DNA of 32,000 nucleotides from Verrucomicrobiota bacterium (GTDB lineage: Bacteria > Verrucomicrobiota > Verrucomicrobiia > Chthoniobacterales > UBA6821), in contig WBXG01000014.1 in NCBI GenBank assembly GCA_008932965.1, positions 188-32,187 of the forward strand, in the 5' to 3' direction. Below are positions 2-31,796 of this stretch, piece by piece. The translations under genes were made by a program, and so were the position numbers. Under the pieces are notes generated by a model. It ran no database searches. It worked only from the letters and a program-made list of their open reading frames with translations, and was not told the origin of the DNA. Positions within the stretch are counted from its first letter, which is position 1. The number at the start of each line of letters is the position of its first letter.

Positions 2-1453
2 TCTAAAACTCCAATCACAGTTGCCTACGGTGACGGTATCGGTCCTGAAATTATGGAGGCAACACTTCATATCATTGAGTCTGCTGGAGCCCAGCTCGAG
101 ATTGAACGAATCGACATTGGTGAAAAAATGTACCTAGCAGGTCATCCCACCGGCATAGATCCTTCTGCTTGGGAATCACTACGCCGTACCAAAGTTTTTT
201 TGAAATCACCCATTACAACTCCTCAGGGAGGAGGCTTTAAGAGTCTTAATGTAACTGCAAGAAAAGCGTTAGGCCTTTATGCCAATGTACGTCCTTGTGT
301 TAGCTACCATCCTTTTGTTGCTACAAAACATCCTTTTATGGATGTCGTTATTATTCGAGAAAATGAAGAGGATCTTTATGCCGGTATTGAGCATCGTCAG
401 TCCCAAGATGTGATTAGTTGTACTAAACTAATATCTCGTCCTGGATGCGAAAAAATTGTGCGTTATGCCTTTGAGTATGCACTCCTCAACAATCGTAAAA
501 AAGTCACCTGCTTCACTAAAGACAACATCATGAAGATGACCGATGGGCTCTTTCACAAAGTATTTGATGAAATTGCAATGGAGTATCCTGGTATCGAAAA
601 GGAGCATTGGATTGTCGATATAGGTGCTGCTAAACTTGCTGACACCCCACAGGTCTTTGATGTCATGGTCCTCCCTAATCTTTATGGGGATATTCTCTCT
701 GATATAGCAGCTCAGATTGCAGGCTCTGTAGGCCTGGCTGGCTCCTCGAATATTGGAAATAATGCGGCTATGTTTGAAGCTATCCACGGCTCTGCTCCCC
801 GTCGAGCAGGTCAAAACCTAGCCAATCCCTCTGGTCTTTTTTTAGGAAGCATCCTCATGCTCCTACATATTGGTCAGGCAGAGGTTGCGGAGCGTGCCCA
901 TAACGCCTGGCTTTGTACCTTAGAGGAAGGAATCCACACTTATGATATTTTTGATGAAGCTGTAAGCCGACAAAAAGTCGGAACGAAGGAATTTGCGCTT
1001 GCCGTTGTTGCGCGCCTAGGCCAGAAACCTCAGCGCCTTAAACCAGTTTCCTACAAAAAAGAATCCCCTGCTCTTCATCGGATGGTTCCTTATTGTCGCC
1101 CCCAAGAAAAAAAAGAACTCATCGGCGCTGATGTTTTTATTGAACATCAAGGACAACTAGACGATCTCATTCCTCTTTTAGTACGATGCGGCATGGCTAA
1201 AGATAAAATGATGTTAGAAATGGTTGATAATCGAGGAATGATCGTCTGGCCTCAGAGACAGCCAGACCTTTTCTATTCTGATTCATTCCGGGCTCGTTAT
1301 AAACTTCCAGACGGGACTCCAGGAGTGATCTCTCACAATAAGATAATTGAATTGCTCCAACGAATCACTTTGGAGAACTTAGAGTTTTTGAAAGTAGAAC
1401 TTCTTTATAATTTCGATGGCCAGCCCGGATTTACAAGAGGACAGGGACAATAG
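2..1453 (+). CDS. icd: Isocitrate dehydrogenase (isocitrate/isopropylmalate dehydrogenase family), 5'-partial, long form with a ~130-aa C-terminal extension
   Basis: The frame is open from base 2: SKTPITVAYGDGIGPEIM precedes the tracked Met at 53, so the gene starts left of the window. Family motifs present: ITVAYGDGIGPEI, LNVTARKALGLYANVRPC, IIRENEEDLYAGIEH, NLYGDILSD, FEAIHGSAPRRAG. Stop at 1451-1453. Confidence 0.9.
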   Translation, partial: SKTPITVAYGDGIGPEIMEATLHIIESAGAQLEIERIDIGEKMYLAGHPTGIDPSAWESLRRTKVFLKSPITTPQGGGFKSLNVTARKALGLYANVRPCVSYHPFVATKHPFMDVVIIRENEEDLYAGIEHRQSQDVISCTKLISRPGCEKIVRYAFEYALLNNRKKVTCFTKDNIMKMTDGLFHKVFDEIAMEYPGIEKEHWIVDIGAAKLADTPQVFDVMVLPNLYGDILSDIAAQIAGSVGLAGSSNIGNNAAMFEAIHGSAPRRAGQNLANPSGLFLGSILMLLHIGQAEVAERAHNAWLCTLEEGIHTYDIFDEAVSRQKVGTKEFALAVVARLGQKPQRLKPVSYKKESPALHRMVPYCRPQEKKELIGADVFIEHQGQLDDLIPLLVRCGMAKDKMMLEMVDNRGMIVWPQRQPDLFYSDSFRARYKLPDGTPGVISHNKIIELLQRITLENLEFLKVELLYNFDGQPGFTRGQGQ

Positions 1454-1599
1454 AAATGGAAGAATCATCGTTAAGAAATTGCTTAGATAGTTTTGTTTGT
1501 TTACAGTTCTTAACAACGGTGAGTTCTCGTAATTTTCTAACATCACTGAAATAGAAAAGCTCTCCTCTATCCTATATCTTCTATTTTTGAAGTTTTTCC

Positions 1600-4500
1600 A
1601 TGCCTAAAGATCTTACGTTAAAAAAAATTCTCCTAATTGGAGCTGGTCCGATTGTTATTGGACAAGGATGTGAGTTTGATTATTCAGGAGTTCAAGCCTG
1701 TAAAGCTTTGAAGGAAGAGGGATACCAAGTTGTTCTTGTTAACTCCAATCCTGCAACCATCATGACTGATCCGGAGTTTGCGGATCGAACCTATATTGAG
1801 CCGATCACCCCGGAGGTTGTCGAAAAGATCATAATACGCGAACAACCAGATTCGCTTCTTCCTACTCTTGGGGGACAAACTGCTCTTAATGTCTCCATGG
1901 AGTTAGTACGACGAGGGATTTTAAAAAAACATGGAGTACGCCTCATTGGTGCCAATGCAGAGGCTATTGAGCGTGGTGAAGATCGAACTGTTTTTAAAAA
2001 CCTGATGCTTGAAATCGGTCTTGAGGTGGCCAATTCAGGTGCTGCCCACTCGATGGAAGAGGTCATTACGATTGCAGAAAAAATAGGTTCTTATCCTTTA
2101 ATCATCCGTCCAGCTTTTACATTAGGTGGTGCTGGAGGGGGCATTGCCAGGAATCGTGAAGAACTAGAACTCATTGCGCAACATGGACTGGATCTCTCTC
2201 CTACCAGCGAAGTCCTCATTGAAGAATCACTCCTTGGCTGGAAAGAATTCGAAATGGAAGTCATTCGTGACTGTGCTGATAATTGCATTGTCATTTGTTC
2301 CATTGAAAATATTGACCCGATGGGTATCCATACCGGAGATTCCATGACAGTAGCTCCGATTCAAACCTTAACTGACAAAGAATATCAGCGCATGCGCAAT
2401 GCCTCCTTTGCTGTTATTCGTGCAGTTGGGGTAGAAACAGGTGGATCTAATATTCAATTTGCCCTGCATCCTCAAACAGGACGGATGCTGGTTATTGAAA
2501 TGAACCCCCGTGTTTCACGCTCTTCTGCTCTTGCTTCTAAGGCCACGGGATACCCCATTGCTAAAATCGCAGCCAAGCTCGCCGTAGGTTATAGATTAGA
2601 TGAATTAACCAACGATATTACAAAAACAACGACTGCCTGTTTTGAGCCTACTATCGATTATTGCGTTGTTAAAATTCCACGTTTTACATTTGAGAAATTC
2701 CCGCTAGCAGATGCAACGCTTACAACACAAATGAAGAGTGTTGGTGAAGTGATGGCCCTCGGAAGAACTTTTAAACAAGCGCTTCAAAAAGCACTTCGAT
2801 CACTTGAGACTGGACGCTTTGGCCTTGGTGCTGATGGAAAAGATACCGAACCTCGTCTTTCAGATGGCACCTGGGATTTCGCAACAATTGAGAAAAATTT
2901 ACGAGTTCCCTGCGCAGAACGGATTTTTATGATTCGCTATGCCTTTCTAGCAGGCCTCTCGGTTGATGATATTCATCAACTCAGCTTTATTGACCCCTGG
3001 TTTTTGCACAATATTTTGGAAATTGTGCAAGAGGAAGAAGAGTACCGTGCAAAACCAGATCAAATTCCATTACTACGTGCAAAAAAAATGGGCTTTTCAG
3101 ACCATCAGATTGCCTATCTGAGTAATCGCTCAGAAGATGAGGTGCGTGCCCAGCGCAAAGCAGAAGGCATTTATCCCACCTACCGGCTCGTAGATACATG
3201 TGCTGCAGAATTTGAAGCCTCCACCCCCTATTTTTATTCGACCTATGGAGAGGAAGATGAAGTTAAAAGTAGCAGTAAGAAAAAAATCATGATCCTAGGA
3301 GGGGGACCGAACCGTATTGGTCAAGGAATTGAATTTGATTATTGTTGTGTGCATGCCTGCTTCGCTCTGCAAGAAGAAGGTTATGAAACGATCATGGTGA
3401 ATTCAAATCCTGAAACGGTCTCCACAGACTATGACACAAGTGACCAACTTTTTTTTGAACCACTCACGCTCGAGGATGTCCTCAATATTTATGAGCGAGA
3501 ACAATGCCACGGTGTTGTTGTGCAATTTGGAGGTCAGACCCCACTAAACCTTGCAGCAGCCCTACAACAACGCGGAGTAACAATTATTGGCACACAACCA
3601 AAAAGCATTGAGATGGCCGAAAATCGAAAGCATTTCTCTCGCATGCTAGAGAAACTTGGGCTTAAGCAAACCGTGGGAGCAACTGCAATCAATGAATCGG
3701 AAGCGGTCAAAATTGCCAGTGAGATTGGATACCCTGTTTTAGTCCGCCCCTCTTTTGTTCTAGGTGGTCGTGCAATGGAAATTATCCACACAGAAACCGA
3801 TCTTCGACGTTACATTCAAACTGCTAGTGCTATTAGTCCCGACAGCCCCATTCTCATTGATCGTTTCTTAGAGGATGCTACAGAAGTCGATGTAGATTGC
3901 CTCGCCGATGGGCATCAATGCGTTATTGGCGGTATTATGGAACATATTGAGGAAGCAGGAATTCACAGTGGTGATAGTGCTTGCGTCATTCCAACTTTTT
4001 CATTATCACCAACGGTCCTCACAAAAATTCGCAACGCCACTTCCCTAATGGCACTCGAACTTCATGTTCGTGGACTGATGAATGTTCAGTTTGCTGTAAA
4101 GGAAGAGGAGGTCTACATCCTGGAGGTCAATCCACGTGCATCACGCACGACCCCTTTTGTAAGCAAGGCTATAGGAGTACCTCTTGCAAAGTTAGCAGCT
4201 AAAATTATGACTGGACGTACGCTTTCCAGCCTTGGCTTTACCCAAGAAATTATCCCCCAGCATTTTTGTATAAAAGAAGCCGTAATGCCTTTTATCAAAT
4301 TTCCAGGAACAGATATTATCCTTGGACCTGAAATGCGCTCTACTGGCGAAGTGATGGGACTCGATGTTGATCTCGGCCGTGCCTATGCCAAAGCACAAAT
4401 GGCCGCGCATCCTCCTCTTCCTTTAGGTGGTAATTTATTTGTGAGTGTCAAGGATGCTGATAAAAAGGCCATTGTACCCTTAGTACGTGAATTTATTGAC

Positions 4501-4827
4501 CTTGGATTTTCGGTTTATGCGACTCGCGGAACAGCACGCACCTTGCAAGAGTCAGGCATTGAAGTTCTTCAACTCAACAGACTCAGTGAGGGACATCCGA
4601 ATGTTTTGGACATGATTCAAAAAAACAATGTTCATTTGATTATCAACACACCCTCGGGAAAATTACCGTGGAGAGATGAAGTTGTTATTCGAAGTGCGGC
4701 CGTTGCTCATAGAATTGTCACAATCACAGTATTAAGAACAGCTATTGCAAGCGCTGCAGCAATTCGAAGCATGCTTGCAGGTGATCTTGAGGTACGTAGC
4801 ATTCAAGAATATCATCAATCTCTCTAA
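1600..4827 (+). CDS. carB: Carbamoyl-phosphate synthase large subunit
   Basis: 1075 aa. Two homologous ATP-grasp halves ([17 protein letters not shown] and [17 protein letters not shown]; [24 protein letters not shown] and [24 protein letters not shown]) plus a C-terminal MGS-like domain. Length matches canonical CarB. No carA is adjacent. Confidence 0.97.
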
Positions 4828-4943
4828 CAGCTAAGAATAATCGCTTGAAATTTAAGTTCAAATGTAGGAGGATTGTGGACTTGTGAACCTTTAGACCCCT
4901 CCACTCTTATCAACCCCCTATAAAAAGTTAAATATACCCCACT

Positions 4944-6659
4944 ATGAAGCCCTCCATTTATTTGTTAATCTCGCTTATCTCGGTAAATCTTGTTATTGCA
5001 GCATCTCCTACAAAAAATCCTAAAACTGTTGCCGATTTAGGTATTGAGATGATAAATGTGGGAGATCCAAAAAATCCCGAAGATCCTTCAAATCACTATG
5101 GTGCTGTAGCTGAAACATTTCAAATTAGTAAATACGACACCACTGCAGCACAATACTGTGTCTTTCTTAACAAAGTCGCTAAGCACTCAGATCCCTATCA
5201 GCTATACGATGAAAGAATGAATAGTGATGAGAACGTCGCTAGCATTGTACGTACAGGAGATGCAACAACCGGCTATACTTACAGCGTTAAATCACCTGAA
5301 ACTGCGCAGCTTCCTATTGTCTATCTCACGTGGTTCTCTTCAGCTCGCTATTGCAACTGGATAAACAATAGTGTGATTGCAGGACACCTACTCGAAGGAT
5401 CAGAAGATGCCTCTACAACAGAAAAAGGAGCCTACGATTTTACCGTTCCTGTAAAAGTTGTGACAAGCAAGTATACTGATTTTCTCAATAACATGGCATC
5501 AACTGAAAGTTCTATAAATCCTAGTGATAGCCTCCATAAAAAATTATTTGAGGATGAGAAAAGCCTCCACGATATTATTAATTGTACTAAAGGAGATAAC
5601 GGAAAATATGTATATTCGATCAAACAAAGTAATACCTCAGCAGACATACCAGACCATGTCGAACTTAGCTGGACTTCTGCAGCACGTTTTAGCAATTGGA
5701 AGTACAATGTAGAGACTACCAAAAATTCTCATCATTACTCAAAAGAAGAACTCACGGAGAGAGGGCTTTTTACTATTGCTGACGGTATTAAGGATAATAC
5801 TGGTGATGCAGATGTAGTCCCGACTGACTATGCTAAGGTTACTCCTGGAGCAAAATATTTTCTTCCTACTGAAAACCAATGGTACAAGGCAGCCTACTTT
5901 GCTAGAAAACATTATGGGCCTGGTTTTAGTTCAGATTATTATAAATATCCAACAAGCATGGATCTTGCTCCAGTTAATCAACTAGAGGGCACACAGATGG
6001 TAGCCAAAACATCTGCATTTTCATGGTTGACCGATGATCCTAATGACGCATTAACTACTGAAAAAGTTGATAAAGGCAATAGCGCTAACTACTACATTGA
6101 TGATATGGTCGTAGATAAAAAATTCACTACAGGAGATAAAAAACCACACCTTACACCAGTAGGATATTTTTCTAAAACAACTTCTCCATATGGAGTATTT
6201 GATATGGCTGGCAATGTGTCACAATGGATCAGTGGTACAGCAGGGCACTATGTAACTTTCAGCTATGACGAGGATGGTAAAATCACGAAAAGTGATTTAG
6301 CTAAAATAGATAATAATGGTCAGCCTCTTCTGGTTGATGGCGTTACAGCTGACAAAACAATAATAGATGCTGGGGGGCACACCATGAAAAAAGATGCCCA
6401 GGATCATATCCTTTTACAATGGCAGTATGCAGGGGTCACACGTCCCATTCGAGGTGGTGGTTGGGGGAATGAGGGACAGTGCCCAACAGGTAATGATCAA
6501 TTTGCAAAAGTTACAATAATGGTCATCGATGGATCTGTGAAACGTGACTATATTGGATTCCGAATTGCTGCCCCTGCTCTTGCTACAATTAAAGATGAAC
6601 AAATGGGCTCTTCACAAAAAGCTCTTGAATCTACCACGGGTCCAAAACAATGGTGGTAA
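4944..6659 (+). CDS. Secreted SUMF1/FGE-sulfatase-domain protein (formylglycine-generating-enzyme-like fold), function unknown
   Basis: N-terminal signal peptide MKPSIYLLISLISVNLVIAA. FGE-domain landmarks: MINVGDPKN, ISKYDTTAAQYCVFLN, PIVYLTWFSSARYCNW, LPTENQWYKAAY, GVFDMAGNVSQW, RGGGWGN, IGFRIA. The N-terminal half-domain is duplicated (second copy VELSWTSAARFSNWKYN). Confidence 0.75.
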   Translation: MKPSIYLLISLISVNLVIAASPTKNPKTVADLGIEMINVGDPKNPEDPSNHYGAVAETFQISKYDTTAAQYCVFLNKVAKHSDPYQLYDERMNSDENVASIVRTGDATTGYTYSVKSPETAQLPIVYLTWFSSARYCNWINNSVIAGHLLEGSEDASTTEKGAYDFTVPVKVVTSKYTDFLNNMASTESSINPSDSLHKKLFEDEKSLHDIINCTKGDNGKYVYSIKQSNTSADIPDHVELSWTSAARFSNWKYNVETTKNSHHYSKEELTERGLFTIADGIKDNTGDADVVPTDYAKVTPGAKYFLPTENQWYKAAYFARKHYGPGFSSDYYKYPTSMDLAPVNQLEGTQMVAKTSAFSWLTDDPNDALTTEKVDKGNSANYYIDDMVVDKKFTTGDKKPHLTPVGYFSKTTSPYGVFDMAGNVSQWISGTAGHYVTFSYDEDGKITKSDLAKIDNNGQPLLVDGVTADKTIIDAGGHTMKKDAQDHILLQWQYAGVTRPIRGGGWGNEGQCPTGNDQFAKVTIMVIDGSVKRDYIGFRIAAPALATIKDEQMGSSQKALESTTGPKQWW

Positions 6660-6810
6660 TTTTTATCTCTATAGTGTCTCTTGATTTATGATAGTGGCAG
6701 CTACTTCTAATTGATAAATAAGCTGCTACTAACAATTACTGGAACTAACTATTGTTGTTCTTTTATTGTCAGTAGCAGCAAATATGAAAAAAAACCATAG
6801 TGAACTCAGC

Positions 6811-6984
6811 TTCCCTATTTCACTCTAATCGTGACTAGGAGGCTGATGAAGCTGTAGGGTATGGCAAGTAATGAAAGTTTAACAACTGATGTGCGGATAC
6901 ACGCTGCACGAGGAAAACTTCGAGCTCAACAAATCTTCTATCAAGCTTCCTGGTATCCTTAGGTGATCGGCATGAAATAACTCC
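6811..6984 (+). mobile_element. Degenerate near-full-length copy of the TA-flanked palindromic MITE family
   Basis: Colinear by eye with copies 17693-17835 and 20430-20606. Left end TTCCCTATTTCACTCTAATCGTGACTAGGAGG, core GATACACGCTGCACGAGGAAAACTTCGAGC, right end GATCGGCATGAAATAACTCC followed by TA (6985-6986). The left TIR carries a small deletion. Confidence 0.6.
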
Positions 6985-7190
6985 TAGGAGCTTATTTGAT
7001 TCAGAGGGAATATTTGATTCTTTACTAAAGGATGTCGTTTCAAAATAGGTTTTGTGCTAGTAACAATTTTTTATAATAGGGTAATGTCCCCAATTAGCTA
7101 CAGAGATTCTACTTCACAACTTTTTTACTAATATCAACAAATCAAATGGGTTGCTATACCAGTTTCAAAAACTTTTGAGATTCCTTCTAA

Positions 7191-7215
7191 TTCCCTATTT
7201 CCTATTTTGATTCAT
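7191..7215 (+). repeat. Possible solo left-end fragment of the MITE family
   Basis: TTCCCTATTTCCTATTTTGATTCAT resembles the degenerate left end at 6811-6835 (TTCCCTATTTCACTCTAATCGTGAC). Short and diverged. Confidence 0.3.
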
Positions 7216-7238
7216 GTTTCTCAGTTTAAAATACTAGA

Positions 7239-7526
7239 ATGGTAACAATGATACCCACTACCTTTATTGCTTTTGGACTTCCAGCAGTTCCAGAGTGCTC
7301 TTTTATTATCGTTTTAGCACTGCTTCTTTTTGGTCCAAAAAAGCTACCACTTCTAGCACGTCAATTTGCTAAGCTCCTTGCTGAATTTCAAGAGGCAAAA
7401 GAAGAATTTCACAAAGAGATTCTTCTAATTCCCCCTACTCCGAAAATTCAAGAGCCTCTAGAAAAAAAAGTCTATCAGAATACATCCAAACCATCACCTC
7501 CATCTGAAATAATAGTAAAAGAGTGA
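7239..7526 (+). CDS. tatA: Twin-arginine translocase subunit, TatA/TatE family
   Basis: A single N-terminal TM helix is followed by the TatA hinge and amphipathic helix: FIIVLALLLFGPKKLPLLARQFAKLLAEFQEAKEEF (FG-KKLP signature). The start could be ATG 7239 or ATG 7248. No tatC is nearby. Confidence 0.7.
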   Translation: MVTMIPTTFIAFGLPAVPECSFIIVLALLLFGPKKLPLLARQFAKLLAEFQEAKEEFHKEILLIPPTPKIQEPLEKKVYQNTSKPSPPSEIIVKE

Positions 7527-7588: not shown

Positions 7589-7590
7589 TA

Positions 7591-7861
7591 ACCCGGATAT
7601 TTCAAACTGGTTCGTCGCGAGGCGCTGCGAATCCTGATGCAGACACCACCGGCGGTCGGGAGACCGCGATGGAGACTGCCCTGGCTTTAAGGGGGCAGCC
7701 CTGAAAGGGCGAGACGAGCGGGAGCGAGCGAGTCAACGCAGATGAGTATTTTGACGCAAGGCTGTTTGATTACATACTACCCAAGAAAGACTCCGAGCTT
7801 GGGCGAAGTATCCATCATGGCTTCCCAGTCTCCGAATGTAATCGGCATGAAATATACGGGC
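7591..7861 (+). mobile_element. Long (271-bp) MITE copy with an extra GC-rich core
   Basis: Left end ACCCGGATATTTCAAACTGG, right end CGGCATGAAATATACGGGC. TA on both flanks (7589-7590, 7862-7863). About 100 extra bp (7641-7740) are absent from the other copies. The right half is colinear with 17693-17835 (GAAAGACTCCGAGCTTGGGCG). Confidence 0.85.
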
Positions 7862-9336
7862 TAGGCAGACTCTTCGGGACGGTAATCCCTCGTCTCAAAG
7901 CGAGTATATTCCTTAAGAAATGTTAACGGGACCTCACCGGTCGGTCCATTACGCTGCTTGGCAATGATGAGTTCAGCTTCACCCTCTTTTTCACTACGAA
8001 GAGCATCATCTTTTTCAAAATAAGCAGAACGATAAAGCAGACCCACGAGATCAGCATCTTGCTCAATTGAGCCAGACTCACGTAGATCAGATATACGTGG
8101 TTTCCCATCACTCCTTTTTTCTGATTCACGATTCAGCTGTGCTAAAACAATCACAGGAATTGATAGCTCTTTTGCCAATGCTTTGATTCCAGCTGAAATT
8201 TCAGCTATTTCAATTTGACGATTATCTTGAGCTCTCTTGGAGTTGGATCTTAGCAACTGAAGGTAATCAATAATAATAAGGCTAAGATCGTGACGATCCT
8301 TCAATCTGCGTGCTTTTGCCCTTAGCTCCAAAATACTGAGTCCAGCAGTATCATCGATATAAATTTTACTTTTGGATAAAGCATCAGCGGCTCGAGAAAG
8401 ATTTTTCATATCTTTACTTCCCATGAACCCATCACGCACTTTTTTTAAATCTACTTTGGCACGTGAACACAGAACTCGTTGAACAAGTTGTTGTGAGCTC
8501 ATTTCCAGGCTAAAAATCCCTACTGATTTTTGAAGATCGATTGCTACATGCTCTGCAATATTCATTGCTAGGGCCGTTTTACCCATTGATGGACGAGCAG
8601 CAATCACAATCATTTCACTAGCATGCATTCCATCTGTAAGCTGATCTAGGAAAGAAAATCCAGTAGAGAGGCCAGTAAGGGCACCTTTATTTTTGTGCAT
8701 GCCTTCGATGGCATCAATCGCCAAAAGCACCTGTTCTTTAATTTCAGGAAGAGCATTACTCACTCGAGATTCACTGATCTTAAAAATATTACTTTCAATA
8801 GTATCAACTAGCGTTTTGACATCACCTTGTTCTTCGTAACATTGAGCTGCTGCACTCGTGCATACAGCAATCATACTCCGTAGAAGAAATTTCTCCTGAA
8901 CAATCTCTAGGTAATATTCAATATTGGCTGCAGTCGGAATAAATTGAATTAAATGAGCCAATGCTGCAGGACCACCTACACCATCAAGAAGTTTTTGATC
9001 GGCTAGTGCCTGGGTCACCGTAATGAGATCAATCGGTTTTAATTCCTTCCATAGACCAACTAAGACGCTGTAGATGGTGGAGTGAGCAGGTTGATGAAAA
9101 TAATTTTCATCAATTTTTTCAATACAGAGAACTAACACCTCTCGAGGTGATAGAAGAATAGAACAAAGCACCCCCATTTCCGCATCAGGACTTGATGGTA
9201 GAGCACGATAGGACTCAGGGAGGATTTTCTTAGCAACAAACTTGTTATCTCCTGCTTCTACCTTTTTTAGAACAGAGGGAGATTTTTTTCTTCCGCTAAA
9301 TGCTCCCGCATCTGTATTAGAAGAAACGGACTCCAT
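7861..9336 (-). CDS. dnaB: Replicative DNA helicase DnaB
   Basis: 491 aa. N-terminal DnaB domain (PSSPDAEMGVLCSILLSP), Walker A ARPSMGKTALAMN, Walker B LIIIDYLQLL, C-terminal motifs GSIEQDADLV and IIAKQRNGPTG. It follows rplI, the conserved rplI-dnaB arrangement. Confidence 0.95.
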   Translation of the reverse strand: MESVSSNTDAGAFSGRKKSPSVLKKVEAGDNKFVAKKILPESYRALPSSPDAEMGVLCSILLSPREVLVLCIEKIDENYFHQPAHSTIYSVLVGLWKELKPIDLITVTQALADQKLLDGVGGPAALAHLIQFIPTAANIEYYLEIVQEKFLLRSMIAVCTSAAAQCYEEQGDVKTLVDTIESNIFKISESRVSNALPEIKEQVLLAIDAIEGMHKNKGALTGLSTGFSFLDQLTDGMHASEMIVIAARPSMGKTALAMNIAEHVAIDLQKSVGIFSLEMSSQQLVQRVLCSRAKVDLKKVRDGFMGSKDMKNLSRAADALSKSKIYIDDTAGLSILELRAKARRLKDRHDLSLIIIDYLQLLRSNSKRAQDNRQIEIAEISAGIKALAKELSIPVIVLAQLNRESEKRSDGKPRISDLRESGSIEQDADLVGLLYRSAYFEKDDALRSEKEGEAELIIAKQRNGPTGEVPLTFLKEYTRFETRDYRPEESA

Positions 9337-10041: not shown

Positions 10042-10824
10042 TTATTGAATTTTCTTGAGGTGTCGTTTCTTCAAACATTCTATGACATCAAAAAAATCAC
10101 TATTGCACGCTTGCAAAAGCACAAGCATGTGAAAGAGCAGATCTGCTGTTTCATTAATGAGCTCGTGAGGTTTTTTACCTACGGCCGCAATAACGGTTTC
10201 TACTGCTTCTTCTCCCACTTTTTGAGCACAACGCTCTCTCCCCTCATTCAACAATTGAGTTGTATACCGAATCGGATCCGCCCCAGCCGTAGCACGCTCG
10301 GCAATGGTGGTGATTAAGGTTTTTATAAATCCAAGATCCGTAGAGACCGGAGGCTGAAAGCAACTGGAATATCCCAAATGACAGGCGGGTCCTTTTGGCA
10401 AGACGAGCACAAGCAAAACATCATGATCACAATCCGTTCGAATAGATTGCACCTCCATACTATTGCCTGAGGTATCACCTTTGCGCCAAAGGGATTGTTT
10501 GCTACGACTCAAGAAGGTGACTTTTCGTGTGCTTACAGTTTGAACATACGCTTCTTGATTCATGTATCCTAACATTAAGACATCTCCTGTTTGTGCATGC
10601 TGAACAATTGCTGGAAGCAATCCTTTCATTTTTTCCCAATCTAATAGACTACTTTCACATTCTAGTGCAGCTGTGGTGAACTCAGAGGAACCAGCATGTC
10701 TCTCTTCGAGCACCTCTTGTTCACTATGGGAATAAGCTTCTAAATTTCCCTCTTTTATATCAGCGGTAGCAACGTTGAAACTAGGTTCTCGTTGATCGAC
10801 TATTGGCTTAGATATAATTTTCAT
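10042..10824 (-). CDS. hisI: Bifunctional phosphoribosyl-AMP cyclohydrolase / phosphoribosyl-ATP pyrophosphatase (HisIE) with a ~55-aa N-terminal extension
   Basis: LDWEKMKGLLPAIVQHAQTGDVLMLGYMNQEAY ... KVTFLSRSKQSLWRKGDTSGN ... DCDHDVLLVL ... GPACH ... CAQKVGEEAVETVIAA ... ETADLLFHMLVLL is colinear with E. coli HisI as I recall it. Last gene of the operon. Confidence 0.93.
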   Translation of the reverse strand: MKIISKPIVDQREPSFNVATADIKEGNLEAYSHSEQEVLEERHAGSSEFTTAALECESSLLDWEKMKGLLPAIVQHAQTGDVLMLGYMNQEAYVQTVSTRKVTFLSRSKQSLWRKGDTSGNSMEVQSIRTDCDHDVLLVLVLPKGPACHLGYSSCFQPPVSTDLGFIKTLITTIAERATAGADPIRYTTQLLNEGRERCAQKVGEEAVETVIAAVGKKPHELINETADLLFHMLVLLQACNSDFFDVIECLKKRHLKKIQ

Positions 10825-14000: not shown

Positions 14001-15227
14001 TTAAAAATCAGGTTGAAACGAACGAAGAGCTAAAAGCAGAGCCTCATTTTGAAGGCGATCACCTACTGTGATTCTCAACTTATCGTCCAGGAGCGGATTC
14101 CCGTTATAATGACGCACTAGAATGTTGTTCTTCTCCAACCAGCTACTCACGCTGTGCGCCTGTTTTGTTTTGAGAAAAATAAAATTAGCCTCACTGGGGT
14201 AAACTTTTTCGACCCAGGAAAAAGTTCTTAAAGAAACCTGTAGTTCTTCACGAAACATCACAATATTTTCAACTGCTGTTTTAATCCAAGATGCATTTTT
14301 TAAAACGCGAAGGGCCCTTTCTATAACGAGACTAGAAAATGTAAAAGGAGGAGTAATACTCCTGAGGGCTTGTATTAAAGGAGCAGGACCTATCACACTG
14401 CCCAGTCGCAAGCCTGCTAAACCATAAGCCTTGGAGAGTGTTCTTAATACAAGCAGATTATCAAATGAGTTGATGAGTGATGTTGCACTTACCGTCTCAG
14501 TAGAGTTTGAATATCGGTTCTGAGCAAATTCCACATAAGCTTCATCCACAACAATGATAGCGCGCCTCTCATATTTTTGACACAAACTAGCAATCGTTTC
14601 TAAATCGATAAGATTACCCGTAGGATTATTGGGACTACAAAGCATGATGAGCTTACAATGCGGTTGCCAGAGCTGATCTAGGAGCTCGAGGTCTAGACTG
14701 AAATCCGTATCTTTGAGAGGACAGCAAATAACATTTGCCTGCTGCATCCGTGCATAAAAAGCGTACATCAAGAAAGCCGGAGGAAATTGCATGATACTAT
14801 CGATGCCCGGTTGCAAAAAAAGACGCATGATAAAATCGATTCCCTCATCAGCACCTCGTGTCAGCAGGAGATTTTCAGGGTTTACGTAATAGATCTCGGC
14901 AAGCGCCTGTTCTAATTGTGACTGAGGTTCTAAGTCAGGGTAGCAGTTTAAAAACCTATTCTCACAGTCTACTGACGTAGCGAAGGGCTTTGTTGCTTCA
15001 GTGCTCGCTCCATCGAGTACATTAAGCGTATTCTGTCGCTGTGCGCTCGATATTCCTTGCCCTTGATCAGCCACAGTAACCTTGAAAACAGGTTCTAGAA
15101 AAACAGAAAACTCCTCGGTGGGTATCCATGGTGATTCATTAAGGTGCAAACGAGTTTTCCCATGAGTAGGGGTAGTAATGTAGGTTGTCATGCCCACTAA
15201 CTCAGGCCGTACTAAGTCAATACTCAT
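14001..15227 (-). CDS. hisC: Histidinol-phosphate aminotransferase, carrying a ~46-aa extra N-terminal segment
   Basis: [57 protein letters not shown] (PLP lysine), LRITVG. 408 aa against about 356 for E. coli HisC (recalled). Confidence 0.88.
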
Positions 15228-16705
15228 TATATTTTCTCCATGACTTGCAAGCGTTGCGAAATTGCATTGGCGTGTGCATCGAGACCTTCGAGCATAGCAA
15301 GGGTGCAGGCTGATTTCCCTAACGTCCTTAATCCTTCCTCAGAGATAGATTGAACACACATCGATTTCATAAAATCCCCAGTTGATAAGCCGCTACGCTG
15401 ACGTGCAAATCCATATGTGGGTAGGATATGATTGCTGCCGGTAACGTAATCACCCAATGTTTCTGCAGCCCATGAGCCTAAGAAAATAGTTCCTGCAGCA
15501 GTAATGTGATCTACCCAACTTGCAGCATCCACACATTGAATCATGAGATGCTCTGGTCCATAACGATTCACAATTTCAATCATTACGGATCGATCTTGGC
15601 AAATGAGGATAGCGCTATGTTGTAACGATTTTTTGATGAATTCTTGTCTCGTGAGATGTTGATATTGGTCGACTAAGGCCTGATGAACCGCTTCTGCAAA
15701 GAGAGGGTCTTCGCACAGTAGAAAAACTTGAGAATCGGCCCCATGCTCCGCCTGAGCTAGTAGATCAGCAGCCACAAAAAGAGGATTTGCTGAGGCATCT
15801 GCTAGGATCATCACTTCGGAGGGACCTGCAGGCATGTCGATAGCTGCACCCTCAGGATCACTAGAAACCTGAACCTTTGCTTCGGTAACATAGGCATTAC
15901 CGGGACCAAAAATCTTATCTACTTTTGGGATGCTTTTTGTTCCATAAGCCATGGCAGCAATTGCTTGAGCCCCTCCAATTTTATAAACTTGTTTGATATC
16001 ACACAAACGAGCAACTACTAGGAGTACTGGATCAATTACTCCTTCTGCATTAGGTGGTGTGCACATGACACGCATAGGACACCCTGCAACCTTTGCTGGG
16101 AGTGCCTGCATGAGCAACGAAGAGACTAAAGGAGTCTTATTACCACCCGGAACATAGAAGCCTACTCGGCTAATAGGTCGATAAATCCGCTCTAGAAGGA
16201 CTCCTGGAGCAGTTGAAATATGCTTATTCTCAGGCAGTGTTTCTTGATGGAAGTGGGTGATGTTTTTCACTGCTGTCATCACGGCTTCCATGGCCTGCGG
16301 AGAAATAGTAGCTGCAGCAATCTCCTTGGGAGAGACTTGCAGGCTCGCTAGCCCGGATATTTCATACTGATCGTGACGAGGAGGCCGCGGAGGCTGATGG
16401 GGTAAGGCAGGCGAGCATTTTGATGCAGGGCTGTATGTGTCCCTACTGCTCAAATCAAAATGTGAGTCTAACGCAGCATCCATCTGACTTCCCGGCTTCC
16501 GTAGTAGATCAGTATGAAATATGCGGGCTAGGTCGATACCATCGAGCTCACGTGTCCATCGTAAGAGAGCTACGTCTCCCTCTTGTTGGACCGAGTGAAT
16601 AATCTCAGTGACACGTTTTTTAGCATCATGGTGCTGGGGAGGCCTTACTAAAAGCTCTTCTCTTCTGGAAGCAGAGAGGATCTGCCAGTTTTCAATACGC
16701 AACAT
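15227..16705 (-). CDS. hisD: Histidinol dehydrogenase, interrupted in-frame by a 60-codon MITE insertion
   Basis: FYVPGGNKTPLVSSLLM, IGGAQAIAAMAYGT, VDKIFGPGNAYVTEAK, IDMPAGPSEV, LLAQAEHG, GPEHL, GDYVTGSNHILPT. 492 aa, or 432 without the insert at 16351-16530. The stop overlaps the hisC start. Confidence 0.9.
   Translation of the reverse strand: MLRIENWQILSASRREELLVRPPQHHDAKKRVTEIIHSVQQEGDVALLRWTRELDGIDLARIFHTDLLRKPGSQMDAALDSHFDLSSRDTYSPASKCSPALPHQPPRPPRHDQYEISGLASLQVSPKEIAAATISPQAMEAVMTAVKNITHFHQETLPENKHISTAPGVLLERIYRPISRVGFYVPGGNKTPLVSSLLMQALPAKVAGCPMRVMCTPPNAEGVIDPVLLVVARLCDIKQVYKIGGAQAIAAMAYGTKSIPKVDKIFGPGNAYVTEAKVQVSSDPEGAAIDMPAGPSEVMILADASANPLFVAADLLAQAEHGADSQVFLLCEDPLFAEAVHQALVDQYQHLTRQEFIKKSLQHSAILICQDRSVMIEIVNRYGPEHLMIQCVDAASWVDHITAAGTIFLGSWAAETLGDYVTGSNHILPTYGFARQRSGLSTGDFMKSMCVQSISEEGLRTLGKSACTLAMLEGLDAHANAISQRLQVMEKI
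16351..16528 (+). mobile_element. 178-bp MITE copy inside the hisD coding sequence (best-preserved copy)
   Basis: The TIRs GCCCGGATATTTCATACTGATC and GATCAGTATGAAATATGCGGGC match 21/22 as inverted repeats. TA on both flanks (16349-16350, 16529-16530). Confidence 0.9.
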
Positions 16706-17614: not shown

Positions 17615-17692
17615 AAAATAGAAATTAGAATTTTTACTAGCGATAGAAGAGTTGATTCTTAAAGGAGAGTGATAGCTTGAGTCAATAGACTA

Positions 17693-17835
17693 ACCATACT
17701 ATTTCATACTGATTGTGACGAGTAGGTCGCGAAGGCTGTATGAGTCCCTACTTCCCGAGGAAGACTTCGAGCTTGGGCGCAACATCCACCCTTGCTTCCC
17801 GGCTTCTGCAGGTAATTGGTATGAAATATGCGAGC
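17693..17835 (+). mobile_element. 143-bp MITE copy between the uvrA stop and the hisG start
   Basis: The left end ACCATACTATTTCATACTGATTGTGACGAG has 4 mismatches in the outer TIR. The right end is GGTATGAAATATGCGAGC. TA on both flanks (17691-17692, 17836-17837). Confidence 0.85.
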
Positions 17836-17850
17836 TAGCAGGTGTGATTA

Positions 17851-20403: not shown

Positions 20404-20429
20404 AACATCACAAATCCTTACCTAAACTA

Positions 20430-20606
20430 ACCCGGATATTTCATGCTAATGGTGACGAGGAGGCCGCGAAGGTTGATAGAGGAGGGCACGCGATCAAGTC
20501 TGACGAGATAGGCGTTTGTACACACTGCCCAAGGAAGACTTCGAATCCAACGCTCTATTCATAGAGCTTTGCACATGCCTTTATAAATTGAGTGTGAAAT
20601 ATCCGG
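20430..20606 (+). mobile_element. 177-bp intergenic MITE copy between tRNA-Ser and uvrA
   Basis: ACCCGGATATTTCATGCTAATGGTGACGAGGAGGCCGCGAAGG ... GGAAGACTTCGAATCC ... GTGTGAAATATCCGG. TA at 20428-20429 and 20607-20608. The right TIR is one base shorter than the left. Confidence 0.85.
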
Positions 20607-20642
20607 TATAGCGGAGCAGTCGCATTCATGAGTAACAAAAAC

Positions 20643-20860: not shown

Positions 20861-21910
20861 ATGATGACTTCAATGCCTCCTGTTAAGACAACTGCGAAAC
20901 AACTCCTTATTACCGGATCTACCGGCTTTGTAGGACGCAATTTGCTGATTCACGCTCTGAAGGATCCGAGCTGGTCTCAAATCATTCTTCCTGTCAGAAA
21001 TCCAAAGAAACTTCTTGAACAACTCCACCAGGATCATCTCCATGGGTATTTAGATCGCTTGCACCTCTGCACCGTGAGCAACAATACATGGAACTTAGAA
21101 GGGATCGAGGATCTTGACCTAGCGATTCACTGTGCTGGACTCACCTTCTCTCGTGACCGAGATCCTTATTTTGCAACACATGTAGAGGGCTCTCTCCATC
21201 TGCTAGAATCACTCCCAAAGCACTCGCGTCTCCTTGTACTCTCCTCCCAATCAGCAGCTGGACCGAGCTCTAAGATTATCCCAATACGTAGAGAAAACCA
21301 TCTTGAAAAACCCCTCACCTGGTATGGAAAATCGAAATTAGCAATGGAAAAAAATCTCTCGCTGCTCGCCTATGAACGGCTTCTTATCCTGCGTCCTCCT
21401 ATGATTCTTGGCCCCCGTGATACGGCGACAGTTCCCCTTTTTAACATGGCTAAGGGACGAGTACGTTTTAAACCTGGTTTTAAAAAAAAGGAATATAGTT
21501 GGATTGCGGTCGATGACTTATGTGATGCAATACTTCTTGCTGCAAGGAACGATTGGAGCTCCCTTCCCCAGCGTTGTTATTTTTTAGCACATCCAAAAAC
21601 ATTGACTGATGTCGCATTGCTTAAGACAACAGCTGAAATAATTCATGCAAGTGGTATTACTCTTCCTTTACCTCATGCTCTGATCCAATGCATTTCAAGA
21701 GTAGCTGATCTGGTACCAACGCTGAGAGAAGCCCTTCCTAGCTTGGGTCGTGATCGGGTTAAAGAAATATTTGAACAGCGTTGGGTGATTGATGGAAAAC
21801 CTTTCGAACGCGATTTTCAGTGGAAAGCTCAAAAAGATCTTCGTGAGACTTTACAAGAAACAGCTGTTTGGTTAGAGAGAAACAGAAGTTCGAAGAGTAA
21901 ATCGCAATAG
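20861..21910 (+). CDS. NAD(P)-dependent epimerase/dehydratase-family (extended SDR) protein
   Basis: Rossmann motif ITGSTGFVGRNLL, catalytic YGKSK (YxxxK), 349 aa. Substrate unknown. The last ~8 codons may derive from the adjacent repeat remnant. Confidence 0.8.
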   Translation: MMTSMPPVKTTAKQLLITGSTGFVGRNLLIHALKDPSWSQIILPVRNPKKLLEQLHQDHLHGYLDRLHLCTVSNNTWNLEGIEDLDLAIHCAGLTFSRDRDPYFATHVEGSLHLLESLPKHSRLLVLSSQSAAGPSSKIIPIRRENHLEKPLTWYGKSKLAMEKNLSLLAYERLLILRPPMILGPRDTATVPLFNMAKGRVRFKPGFKKKEYSWIAVDDLCDAILLAARNDWSSLPQRCYFLAHPKTLTDVALLKTTAEIIHASGITLPLPHALIQCISRVADLVPTLREALPSLGRDRVKEIFEQRWVIDGKPFERDFQWKAQKDLRETLQETAVWLERNRSSKSKSQ

Positions 21911-21975
21911 GATTCTAACACAGCATCCATCTGAATTCCCGGCTTCCGTAGGTGATCGTGATGAAATATGCGGGT
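21911..21975 (+). repeat. Right-half MITE remnant between two convergent genes
   Basis: GATTCTAACACAGCATCCATCTGAATTCCCGGCTTCCGTAGGTGATCGTGATGAAATATGCGGGT is nearly identical to the right half of copy 16351-16528. Followed by TA (21976-21977). Weaker similarity may extend left to about 21884. Confidence 0.8.
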
Positions 21976-24206
21976 TAAGGAAACGCTGGAACCGTGTAGG
22001 GAATATCACCTGCATAGGGATAAAGATTGATGACATAAAGTCCACTTGAAGAGCCGGTAGGGTCGCCCCCTTTTTCTTTTGCGTTAAGCACTCGTTGATA
22101 AGCTTCGCAAGCAATTCTTGTGACTCTTGCTTGCATTTCTGGATGATCTTCATAGTGACGCATGACGCAATAGATAGCTTTTAATTCAGCCAGTCGTTCT
22201 TGGACGTAAGGTTCTATGGGATCACTAGAAGGACTTGAATTTTTGAGTTTTTGATAATGATTTTTTATATCACTGAGTACATTTTGATAACTCAGCTCTT
22301 GGGTGGTTACTCTGGGGCCAGGCTTATAGAGCAATTGACCATCTGATTGTGATTGGCTTTCCAATTTATTTGCATAGGTGATTTCGGCACGGCTTTTAGA
22401 GTTTAAGTAGCGAGCACTTAAATAAACAGTAAATTGTCTAGGCATCGAAGCAGAAGTAACGACTCGATTTACTATTTTAAAAGTACGACTTTCAAAACCG
22501 ACCCCTGAAGTGATTTCCTCGTTGAGTTGGTCTTCATTCTCTACGCTATCTTGGGCTTGATGCGCTATTTCAGGAAGATTGTCGGCGCTTGTCATTCCCA
22601 ATAAATGTCGGGTGTCATCGACTAAATGAACCACATCATGAGTTAAATCATTACCTGTTCCATGTAACGCAGCCTCTGAAGCATAATAACCAGATAAAAG
22701 AAATAATTCATGGCTGAGTGCTTCTGAATAGGGAATCCCAGTCGCAGCAACGGCATGATCGATCACACCACCCACAAGAGTATTCTGAATACTTTCACCT
22801 AGCATGGCACCAACAGTTGTATGATATGCAATATTAGCACCAGCATTGGCACCCGTGAGAGCATTCACATCACTCTGGGGGCTCAAGGCCTCATCAACCT
22901 TAGCATCCCAATAAGTTGTTACATAACCAACACCCCAACCAGCAGCCACCCCTGCAATGATACCAATCCCGAGAGCTCCAACCGGAAGTAATGCCGTGCC
23001 AAGGGCTCCTGTTGCCAGTGGTGCTCCCAAGTGTGCTACAGCAGTAGTAACTGCAGGGCCAACTGAGTAGCCTTTTAAAAGCATTCCTATTTTGATGAGA
23101 TCTCCAGGGGTTTTTAGTAACTCTTTTCCAGTTTCAGTCAGTTTCTTTAAACAGCGTTGTTCCTCAAGTGATAGTTTTTCAAATTTTTCCTCTGCCTCAC
23201 ATCTTACACGATTTTCTCTGTGTTCGCTCAGTATACCCGATTGCAAAGGAATGAGTTCAGCCACGCGATCCAAACCTGCGTAACAGTCATCGATCATCGC
23301 TTTTGCTTGACGATAGCCTAGAGGAGAGTTCGGCTCGTGTTGAAGAAAGGGTTGAGGGAGTTGATCTCCAAATTGAGCTTGAATGGCTTGAGAAAATCTT
23401 TTCCAGATCGCTCGTGACTGATCTTCCGTTGGTGGTTCTTGTTGAAAAAGTATTTTATTCTCTTCATCTGTTAGCAAAAAACCATCCTCCTCTTGGCATA
23501 AAATATCAGTAAAAGGCTTCAGTAAATGGTGAGCATTCTCTCTAGCGCTCTGAGCAAGAACATAAGTCCCCTCCAGCATCTCCTCTCTGGCTTGGGGATC
23601 TAGATTTTTAATATCTTCAAACGCATCACTCAGTGAATGAGCTACCTCATTAAAAGCTGGAGGTTCCTGATTTGAGGAGTGGCTAGAAATCTGCCCAACT
23701 TGCTCTGCCTCTCTTGTTTTGATTTCTTGAAAAGCTTGGTAAGCCTCTAAGGCAACTCTAGAAATCTCATTTTTGACTTTTTCTAAGTTCTCCGCTGAAG
23801 AGTTGTTAGGAATCCCTACCTTGATTCTAATAGCTTCCTCGTGAAATTTTTTAAGATTGTTGTTAGGTGAACGATCACTTCTGGAATTTTTTTGAAGCTC
23901 CTTATCCATGATTTGTATTGCTTTGATTTTGGTTATAGCAAGGCTCCTAATTGCCTCACGATCATCATTCTCTTGTTCACCATTGTGATGATTGTAATAG
24001 GAGCGATTGGTATATCCAAACCAACTACCCAAAAAGGAGAGACGACTCCTTTCCGTTTCTTTCACTTTTCCTGAGGAATTATTGGGCGATACTTGCTTCA
24101 ATGATCCAGAAGAACTGACAGTGGCATTATCATTAGATTTAGAGGTAAAGGGATAAAAACTAGGTAAACTAGAAATAATCCGCGAAAATAAATTTTGTGC
24201 GCTCAT
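21975..24206 (-). CDS. Hypothetical 743-aa protein with a central glycine-zipper / bilobed hydrophobic segment
   Basis: A long uninterrupted ORF with no signal peptide and a hydrophilic Ser/Asn-rich N-terminus. Residues ~372-433 read GMLLKGYSVGPAVTTAVAHLGAPLATGALGTALLPVGALGIGIIAGVAAGWGVGYVTTYW. I recognise no family motif. Confidence 0.6.
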   Translation of the reverse strand: MSAQNLFSRIISSLPSFYPFTSKSNDNATVSSSGSLKQVSPNNSSGKVKETERSRLSFLGSWFGYTNRSYYNHHNGEQENDDREAIRSLAITKIKAIQIMDKELQKNSRSDRSPNNNLKKFHEEAIRIKVGIPNNSSAENLEKVKNEISRVALEAYQAFQEIKTREAEQVGQISSHSSNQEPPAFNEVAHSLSDAFEDIKNLDPQAREEMLEGTYVLAQSARENAHHLLKPFTDILCQEEDGFLLTDEENKILFQQEPPTEDQSRAIWKRFSQAIQAQFGDQLPQPFLQHEPNSPLGYRQAKAMIDDCYAGLDRVAELIPLQSGILSEHRENRVRCEAEEKFEKLSLEEQRCLKKLTETGKELLKTPGDLIKIGMLLKGYSVGPAVTTAVAHLGAPLATGALGTALLPVGALGIGIIAGVAAGWGVGYVTTYWDAKVDEALSPQSDVNALTGANAGANIAYHTTVGAMLGESIQNTLVGGVIDHAVAATGIPYSEALSHELFLLSGYYASEAALHGTGNDLTHDVVHLVDDTRHLLGMTSADNLPEIAHQAQDSVENEDQLNEEITSGVGFESRTFKIVNRVVTSASMPRQFTVYLSARYLNSKSRAEITYANKLESQSQSDGQLLYKPGPRVTTQELSYQNVLSDIKNHYQKLKNSSPSSDPIEPYVQERLAELKAIYCVMRHYEDHPEMQARVTRIACEAYQRVLNAKEKGGDPTGSSSGLYVINLYPYAGDIPYTVPAFP

Positions 24207-26838: not shown

Positions 26839-26861
26839 ATTCCATAGCTCCTCATCATTAC

Positions 26862-26899
26862 GATCAGTATGAAACATCCAGGTTGACCCGGATATTTCT
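26862..26899 (+). repeat. Right-end TIR directly abutting a left-end TIR (tail-to-head MITE ends, no core)
   Basis: GATCAGTATGAAACATCCAGGT - TG - ACCCGGATATTTCT. The first part matches the right TIR and the second the left TIR. Confidence 0.65.
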
Positions 26900-31699: not shown

Positions 31700-31752
31700 G
31701 TAAAATGGTAGACTCGATCATAATAATAGAGCCTCCTATATTCTCCTTCATT

Positions 31753-31796
31753 CTGACCGGCCCCTCACGACCAATCAGTATCAAATATCCGGGGGC
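31753..31796 (+). repeat. Solo right-end MITE remnant
   Basis: CTGACCGGCCCCTCACGACCAATCAGTATCAAATATCCGGGGGC aligns with CTTCCCGGCTTCCGTAGTAGATCAGTATGAAATATGCGGGC. Followed by TA (31797-31798). Confidence 0.6.

Follow-up and report, generated by a model that had tools for sequence, protein, structure and literature searches.

An in-frame miniature inverted-repeat element in hisD of a Chthoniobacterales bacterium, and related insertions in other genes of the clade

The hisD gene (histidinol dehydrogenase) of a Verrucomicrobiota bacterium of the Chthoniobacterales contains a complete MITE (a miniature transposable element with inverted repeats), and the open reading frame (ORF) continues through it. 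The gene lies in a stretch of 32,000 nucleotides of contig WBXG01000014.1 (assembly GCA_008932965.1, positions 188 to 32,187 of the forward strand), which is called the window here. The element belongs to a dispersed family designated family A. According to the analyses described below, the insert is probably a selfish element whose presence in hisD was tolerated and fixed, with the gene under purifying selection (rough probability 0.85). In the proposed mechanism, a non-autonomous family A MITE would have transposed into a part of hisD that encodes a surface-exposed linker, at a CTAG (YTAR) target, the first three bases of which form a Leu codon. The added 60-residue peptide would form a disordered surface loop after the N-terminal helical segment, which extends to residue 58. 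As the fold and the catalytic residues would be left intact, the allele could be tolerated and fixed, and the insert would be a selfish passenger rather than an adaptation. We infer the mechanism of transposition and the enzyme driving it. The insertion in hisD is not isolated: family A is present in more than 20 other proteins, and a second element, family B, is present in the neighbouring hisC.

Insertion in hisD and its empty site

The features of hisD are as follows.

15227..16705, minus strand: hisD (histidinol dehydrogenase), 492 aa with the insert counted; ORF, Pfam Histidinol_dh E = 8.8e-149, PDB 1K75 E = 2.5e-111
16352..16527, no strand assigned: core of the family A MITE, 176 bp between the CTAG copies; nhmmer and alignment of 12 full-length copies
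16348..16372, plus strand: left terminal inverted repeat (TIR) next to its CTAG flank, which relative to the gene is the 3' side of the insert, with CTA as Leu119; 25 nt, 96% complementary
16507..16531, plus strand: right TIR next to its CTAG flank, which relative to the gene is the 5' side of the insert, with CTA as Leu59; 25 nt, 96% complementary
16349..16528, minus strand: 60 extra codons, residues 60–119, ARIFHTDLLRKPGSQMDAALDSHFDLSSRDTYSPASKCSPALPHQPPRPPRHDQYEISGL; 60-column gap in 119 of 121 HisD sequences

On the plus strand, CTAG is present at 16348–16351 and 16528–16531, with the TA dinucleotides at 16349–16350 and 16529–16530. If the duplication is counted as TA, the element is 178 bp long (16351–16528). 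A TA duplication with 178 bp and a YTAR duplication with 176 bp both give 180 bp, and thus 60 codons are added with neither a frameshift nor a stop. In gene orientation, the junctions read GAC CTA/GCC CGC ATA TTT CAT ... TCC GGG CTA/GCG AGC. Both TA dinucleotides are located inside CTA Leu codons, and the hisD frame is open through all 60 added codons. The frames crossing the element are the hisD frame and an antisense frame of 96 codons; no transposase gene is present. The GC content of the element is 51.7%, against 43.1% in the window. As DNA the element folds into a hairpin of -49 kcal/mol (z = -7.0; none of 200 shuffles folds as well), and as mRNA into one of -81.3 kcal/mol (z = -6.8).

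The empty site was found in the nearest orthologue, P0002, which is 88% identical outside the gap and reads RELDGID-LASLQVSPKE at the site. Cutting the 180 bp from hisD gives ...RELDGIDLASLQVSPKE..., identical to P0002. The P0002 contig (L001) has GAC TTA GCG AGC where the window has GAC CTA[178 bp]CTA GCG AGC, and a further relative, L003, has AGC TTA ACG AGG. L001 thus carries a single TTAG at the position of the two CTAG flanks in the window, which is a target-site duplication with its empty site. In the alignment of 121 HisD sequences, the insert columns are filled only in the window protein and P0001 (99% identical), and relative to E. coli HisD (1K75) the extra residues come after position ~60 and before position 61. 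An intein, a group I or II intron and a known RNA were considered and rejected: Pfam detects only Histidinol_dh, Rfam gives nothing at E <= 1, and the insert is a dispersed TIR repeat.

These results agree with the initial annotation, made from the sequence alone, in which a MITE was placed in frame in hisD with 180 extra bp (60 codons), and the flanking TA was read as part of a CTA Leu codon at both ends. The TIRs, the TA/CTAG duplication and the open ORF were all seen, and the junction codons are as described there. Its reconstruction of the empty site is matched by both the P0002 protein and the L001 DNA, and its gap-free fit to E. coli HisD by the position of the insert on 1K75. An alignment of orthologues had been proposed as a check, and among the 121 aligned sequences a homologous segment at the site was detected in no other HisD than P0001. 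The closest relatives of the window HisD have 433–441 aa; the initial annotation had noted that 492 aa exceeds the canonical length of about 430–435 aa.

Persistence of the insertion and constraint on hisD

Contig L002, from another sample, is 98.6% identical to the window over 17.9 kb, with the same junctions and an identical element. The 492-aa HisD is recorded in at least five independent contig sets, from NCBI, JGI and ENA assemblies of different studies. The same insert in independent assemblies indicates that it is not an artefact. A misjoining of the repeat into hisD during assembly or binning might be suspected from contigs that break at the site, as is usual for repeats, leaving HisD fragments of 56–62 aa; the HisD cluster holds fragments of 47–62 aa that correspond to such breaks at the repeat. 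The identical junctions in an independent sample, the agreement of assemblies of different origin, and the target-site duplication with an exact 180 bp, which is the signature of a true transposition, make this explanation extremely improbable.

Between the two insert-bearing strains, hisD shows eight synonymous and three nonsynonymous differences, with no frameshift and no stop. In codons 1–58 the sole difference is synonymous. In the 58 codons that precede the insert, the ratio of nonsynonymous to synonymous substitution rates (dN/dS) against L001 and L003 is 0.19 and 0.08; the codons that follow the insert give 0.11 and 0.07. Each value spans the whole inter-species branches and not only the time after the insertion. 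According to the alignment and the match to 1K75, Gln318, His321, Glu385, His386, Asp419 and His478 are invariant or nearly so. These residues align with positions of the E. coli enzyme that we take to be Zn-binding or catalytic, with the roles as in 1KAE. The initial annotation regarded the gene as functional rather than decaying, and the ratio of eight synonymous to three nonsynonymous differences and the conservation of the catalytic and Zn-binding positions are consistent with this view.

The hisD gene is part of a his operon on the minus strand of the window, in the order hisG-D-C-B-H-A-F-IE. The hisGDCBHAFI operon is whole, with overlapping start and stop codons. The hisD stop and the hisC start overlap as TAATG, so the overlap reported in the initial annotation is intact. 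An alternative is that the insert inactivated HisD and that the gene is a young pseudogene which is still open, the histidine being obtained from the environment or a host. The lineage bears MITEs in several his genes (hisD, hisC and perhaps hisIE), and this could be read as relaxed selection on the pathway. The intact operon with its overlapping starts and stops, the excess of synonymous differences, the lack of frameshifts and stops across at least five assemblies, the nearly invariant catalytic and Zn-binding residues and the intact predicted fold all argue against inactivation, which we consider very unlikely.

Beyond a few closest uncultured relatives, nearly all the best HisD matches are from Legionella/Tatlockia (51–66% identity). 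The metagenome-assembled genomes (MAGs) hosting the hisD insert are nevertheless classed as Chthoniobacterales/Verrucomicrobia. The his operon may have been transferred horizontally, or the similarity may come from a common amoeba-associated gene pool.

Predicted structure of HisD and the start of translation

The AlphaFold2 model of the 492-aa HisD, built with a 121-sequence alignment, has a predicted template-modelling score (pTM) of 0.82, and the predicted local distance difference test (pLDDT) value exceeds 90 for 332 residues. Residues 60–117 have pLDDT values below 50 and no secondary structure. The insert forms a loop between the helix 44–55 and the strand/helix 123–131, whereas residues 1–58 are packed on the core with pLDDT values of 76–98. 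Foldseek superposes the model on 1k75_A, the E. coli HisD, with a TM score of 0.82 normalised to the target (E = 3.8e-41). The insert is thus predicted to be a disordered loop outside the HisD fold, and the fold is predicted to be kept. Structure prediction had been suggested at the outset as a check of a surface loop, and its loop part gave the anticipated result.

Besides the span of the dN/dS values, several points weigh against the explanation by a tolerated insertion. Translation of the full 492-aa HisD and retention of its activity are predictions. In the metagenome scan, an empty hisD allele of the same species was not found, and nothing was closer than 60% identity; recent mobility therefore lacks support. 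An autonomous insertion sequence (IS) with matching termini was not found, and no transposase is located beside the solo terminus in contig L009. The NCBI annotation KAB2644367.1 (P0277) starts at Met75 inside the insert and gives a protein of 418 aa. The sequence GGAAG is located 5 nt upstream of the Met75 ATG, and the mRNA hairpin of -81 kcal/mol could stall upstream ribosomes or impede translation.

The last three observations would fit a split gene, in which the element supplies a ribosome-binding site and the start codon at Met75. The product would then be a 418-aa HisD without the first 58 residues but with a 45-residue N-terminus derived from the element, and the upstream 58 codons would be open by chance or as a small peptide. 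A second 418-aa member is present in the HisD cluster. On the other side, codons 1–58 have dN/dS values like those of the rest of hisD and differ between the strains only synonymously, the frame is continuous through the 60 inserted codons, and AlphaFold2 packs residues 1–58 confidently on the core. In addition, many further proteins have the element internally, and a restart within it would cost them essential domains. A split gene is accordingly judged unlikely, and a tolerated insertion in a continuously read hisD is preferred.

Copies, target and reading frame of family A

Family A is repeated in the window and in other Chthoniobacterales MAGs (nhmmer matches with E = 1e-52 to 1e-27). The termini are CCCGGATATTTCATACTGATCGTGACGAGG, and the TIRs are conserved across the 12 aligned copies. 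The terminus motif CCCGNATATTTCATNC occurs four times in the window, against 0.00 expected. About nine copies or fragments are present in the window; those outside hisD that are listed below are all intergenic or abut gene ends.

20428..20610, plus strand: full-length copy, intergenic
6808–6983: full-length copy
17691–17837: full-length copy
7589–7863: long variant, 275 bp, with a GC-rich internal segment
10017–10037, 21907–21976, 26850–26882 and 31745–31793: fragments

Outside the window, true members were found in at least seven loci or contigs of 'uncultured Spartobacteria bacterium Kiruna_bin-02438' and in at least one locus of 'Chthoniobacterales bacterium SMAG_U8253' (nhmmer, E = 1e-47 to 1e-23). 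In the scan of the genome collection a 14-base terminus pattern was used, and the matches listed are mostly due to chance; only the Chthoniobacterales loci are members of the family. The family A element has no match in Rfam at E <= 1. As a parent IS, P0193 with its rve domain was considered and rejected: the element is located after the domain, and the arrangement looks like a nested insertion.

YTAR flanks both sides of most copies, as CTAG/CTAG, TTAG/TTAG or TTAA/TTAA (twice). The imperfect pairs are TTAG/CTAG and CTAA/CTAG. A TA model and a 4-bp YTAR model each leave two of the six informative copies mismatched, and TA is always present on both flanks. The two models fit alike because the near-palindromic target hides the difference. 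The target duplication may be the 4-bp YTAR rather than TA.

In 12 copies anchored on their termini, no more than a single frame is open in each orientation. In this frame the flanking YTA is a Leu codon, and the family A consensus is stop-free in it in each orientation. The Leu-phase frame is open in the copies nearest the consensus (hisD, L063 and L106_1107), whereas the decayed copies have stops. In the other two phases the element would be closed, judging from the sequence: in one, TAR becomes a stop codon of the host gene, and in the other a TGA is met in the terminus. At two ORFs, 7861..9336 and 21975..24206, the end of a copy coincides with the stop codon, which is the TAR of YTAR. The closing of one phase by TAR would explain why these copies are located exactly on the stops at 7861–7863 and 21975–21977. 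The ORF 20861..21910 continues into half a copy of family A. Stop codons thus seem to be targeted often by family A, and some gene 3' ends seem to be derived from the element.

The stop-free consensus also bears on a possible co-option, in which the Pro-rich, hydrophilic loop of 60 residues would serve HisD and the other host proteins in a new function, such as that of an interaction or localisation module, or the RNA hairpin would regulate the his operon. Many copies keep the open frame, and the hisD element shows no difference between two strains whose overall divergence is 1.4% of sites. This identity is not significant, because about 1.3 changes are expected in 180 nt and zero were seen. 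Most intergenic copies carry stops in the Leu-phase frames. Open frames are weakly enriched over shuffles (9 against 4.1 ± 2.0), and since the enrichment is weak and the copies are related and not independent, selection for coding capacity is not claimed. The insert peptide is predicted to be disordered. A specific protein function is also made less likely by the lack of relationship between the peptides that the two orientations encode in different hosts. Co-option thus has only a slight probability, and the insert is better regarded as a tolerated passenger.

Family A in other proteins

Other hosts were searched for exhaustively with HMMER, using the 62-residue insert peptide as the query (E <= 1e-3). 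A word-indexed peptide search gave only short ORFs and missed the 492-aa HisD, and it was not used for the host range. The insert peptide matched 123 cluster representatives, 19 of which have at least 200 aa, and the named protein matches are all from Chthoniobacterales/Verrucomicrobia MAGs. Counting both orientations, the insert L-xRIFH...EISG-L is present in more than 20 long proteins, and every junction fits L-[A/T/S]RIFH...EISG-L. The hosts with assigned domains (Pfam) are as follows.

P0184, 364 aa: hexose-6-phosphate mutarotase, element at 106–166
P0187, 280 aa: type I 3-dehydroquinase (AroD), element at 19–79
P0216, 272 aa: DR2241 + Fer4_23 protein, element at 111–172, between the domains
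P0222, 224 aa: histidine phosphatase, element at 13–77
P0185, 261 aa: shikimate kinase, element at 3–63, N-terminal
P0188, 290 aa: phosphopantetheinyl transferase, element at 227–287, C-terminal
P0225, 576 aa: Vut_1 + FtsX, element at 339–399

P0184 is from the same MAGs as the 492-aa HisD. Its residues 25–107 correspond to residues 38–121 of the chain in PDB 2HTA, and residues 175–336 to residues 128–283, which is a clean interruption. Among the hosts, preservation of the fold is supported by prediction for HisD alone.

The element is also read in the opposite orientation. It is open within an 852-aa protein of the Kiruna MAG (L063), and peptide similarity identified the following further hosts.

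P0295: Fe-ADH/DHQ-synthase-family domains, with two element copies
P0299: OprB porin
P0300: ResB
P0301: glycosyltransferase (GT2)
P0302: acyl-CoA dehydrogenase N-terminal domain, with a long element variant, ...GAPPAVGRPRGDCQRLPLGSPERARRAGASES...
P0296–P0298: hypothetical proteins

For the 852-aa host, an empty-site orthologue was not found; P0294, which is 88% identical, bears the element too. No precomputed Pfam domain is on record for this protein. L063 contains very large ORFs at 1241–3799 and 3917–7513 (852 and 1198 aa), and family A is in forward orientation in the 852-aa ORF. Separately, the short proteins P0121–P0175 are dozens of 'hypothetical proteins' of 49–112 aa in Chthoniobacterales MAGs, which correspond to translated intergenic copies of the element.

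Family B in hisC, uvrA and hisIE

A second, unrelated element was found in frame in the gene next to hisD.

14955..15101, minus strand: in-frame family B MITE of hisC, with a length of 147 bp (49 codons); lacking in HisC of both L001 and L003
~14499..14525, minus strand: 24-nt in-frame remnant of the family B terminus in hisC, residues NRYSNSTE; 8-residue gap in orthologues

Family B is a short TIR element of 141–147 bp, with the termini AACCTGT[A/T]TTCA. The terminus is AACCTGTATTCA, and the termini of the hisC insert are AACCTGTTTTCA/TGAGAATAGGTT. HisC has 408 aa in the window and 351 aa in L003. In L003, uvrA contains an in-frame insert of 141 bp (47 codons) at 4565–4705, which is missing from uvrA of the window. 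The hisC and uvrA inserts are 67.5% identical over 157 nt (E = 9e-13).

The DNA of the 8-residue insert in hisC, AACCGATATTCAAACTCTACTGAGAC, agrees with the family B terminus of L003 uvrA in 23 of 26 bases. Its appearance is that of a remnant consisting of a solo terminus, or of a footprint of excision or deletion that stayed in frame. In the case of hisIE, the protein has 260 aa in the window and 217 aa in L003, with a 45-residue N-terminal extension (10646–10824, minus strand). The extension shows a weak match to family B, with E = 1e-4 in L002 and 0.02 in the window. Possibly hisIE acquired its present 5' end, with the start codon, from an element, or translation in fact begins further downstream.

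Significance and comparison with known systems

The insertions described here suggest that translated selfish DNA in essential enzymes is not peculiar to Rickettsia. In an unrelated phylum, it would follow an explicit sequence rule, by which TA/YTAR is the target, a Leu codon is the point of entry, and the element has a stop-free frame whichever way round it lies. If this is true, natural pairs of filled and empty alleles would make it possible to examine how enzymes tolerate disordered inserts of 50–60 residues and whether these give rise to new protein segments. Such orthologue pairs are available in enzymes with solved structures, namely HisD, hexose-6-phosphate mutarotase and the UvrA of a relative. 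The clean empty site in a structurally characterised enzyme, together with two families in many proteins of one clade, sets the case above a routine MITE. For practical purposes, the elements distort the annotation of MAGs. They generate dozens of spurious small 'hypothetical proteins', the start calls differ (418-aa or 492-aa HisD), and contigs break within genes.

Family A has the features of bacterial MITEs: small size with no transposase, TIRs, a target duplication with an empty site, and dispersed copies. The target, the duplication, the TIRs, the small size and the lack of a transposase resemble those of MITEs of the IS630/Tc1-mariner (TA) or IS5 (YTAR, 4-bp) families. Unlike in those cases, a parent IS with matching termini was not found in the sequence searched.

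Internal in-frame repeats have been published for BRE in about nine betaproteobacterial genes, pneumococcal repeats, ERIC/RU-type repeats, Anabaena MITEs and Coxiella QMITEs (PMC3184786, PMC10969869, PMC5896051), and a 2024 review calls in-frame fusions of repeats 'not unusual'. This group includes BRE of Bordetella and other betaproteobacteria, ERIC/YPAL/RU, the pneumococcal BOX/RUP/SPRITE and QMITE1/2 (PMC3184786, PMC10969869, PMC5896051). The initial annotation had proposed a second example after the Rickettsia palindromic elements (RPEs), and this is overstated, given the precedents of BRE, ERIC, QMITE and the Anabaena MITEs. As in this group, the elements described here are non-autonomous repeats with open frames that are fused to genes, either within them or at one of their ends (5' or 3'); the terminal extensions are those in the shikimate kinase and phosphopantetheinyl transferase hosts. 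The published fusions are mostly terminal or in hypothetical proteins, whereas many of the present insertions are internal in defined enzymes (HisD, HisC, UvrA, hexose-6-phosphate mutarotase and AroD), and family A enters at a YTA Leu codon.

RPEs are short palindromic repeats (100–150 bp) that are common between genes and are also found in frame in many housekeeping genes (Ogata et al. 2000, 2002, as summarised in PMC10969869 and PMC1779305). Several families are present per lineage, the inserted peptides were judged compatible with the fold, and a remnant of RPE-7 is present in pheT (PMC10969869, PMC1779305). Family A likewise occurs both in intergenic DNA and in frame in many unrelated genes, and with family B there are multiple families in one lineage. 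The 24-nt family B sequence in hisC is an old in-gene remnant that parallels RPE-7 in pheT. The host is a member of the Verrucomicrobiota (Chthoniobacterales), in contrast to the Alphaproteobacteria that carry RPEs. Family A also differs in its 25-nt TIRs, its TA/YTAR duplication with an empty site, its size of 176–178 bp and its reading in both directions. On account of the different host phylum and the MITE hallmarks, the elements are set apart from RPE families 1–10 of the Rickettsiales, a distinction made without direct sequence comparison. In a limited literature search, a paper on such elements in Verrucomicrobia was not found.

We therefore lean, by somewhat better than an even chance, towards the view that a Chthoniobacterales clade has at least two 'coding-competent' MITE families inserted in frame in dozens of genes, with family A placed at YTAR and open only if YTA is read as Leu, in either orientation. 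The clade would then represent an independent case of translated selfish DNA on the scale of the RPEs, outside the obligate intracellular Alphaproteobacteria.

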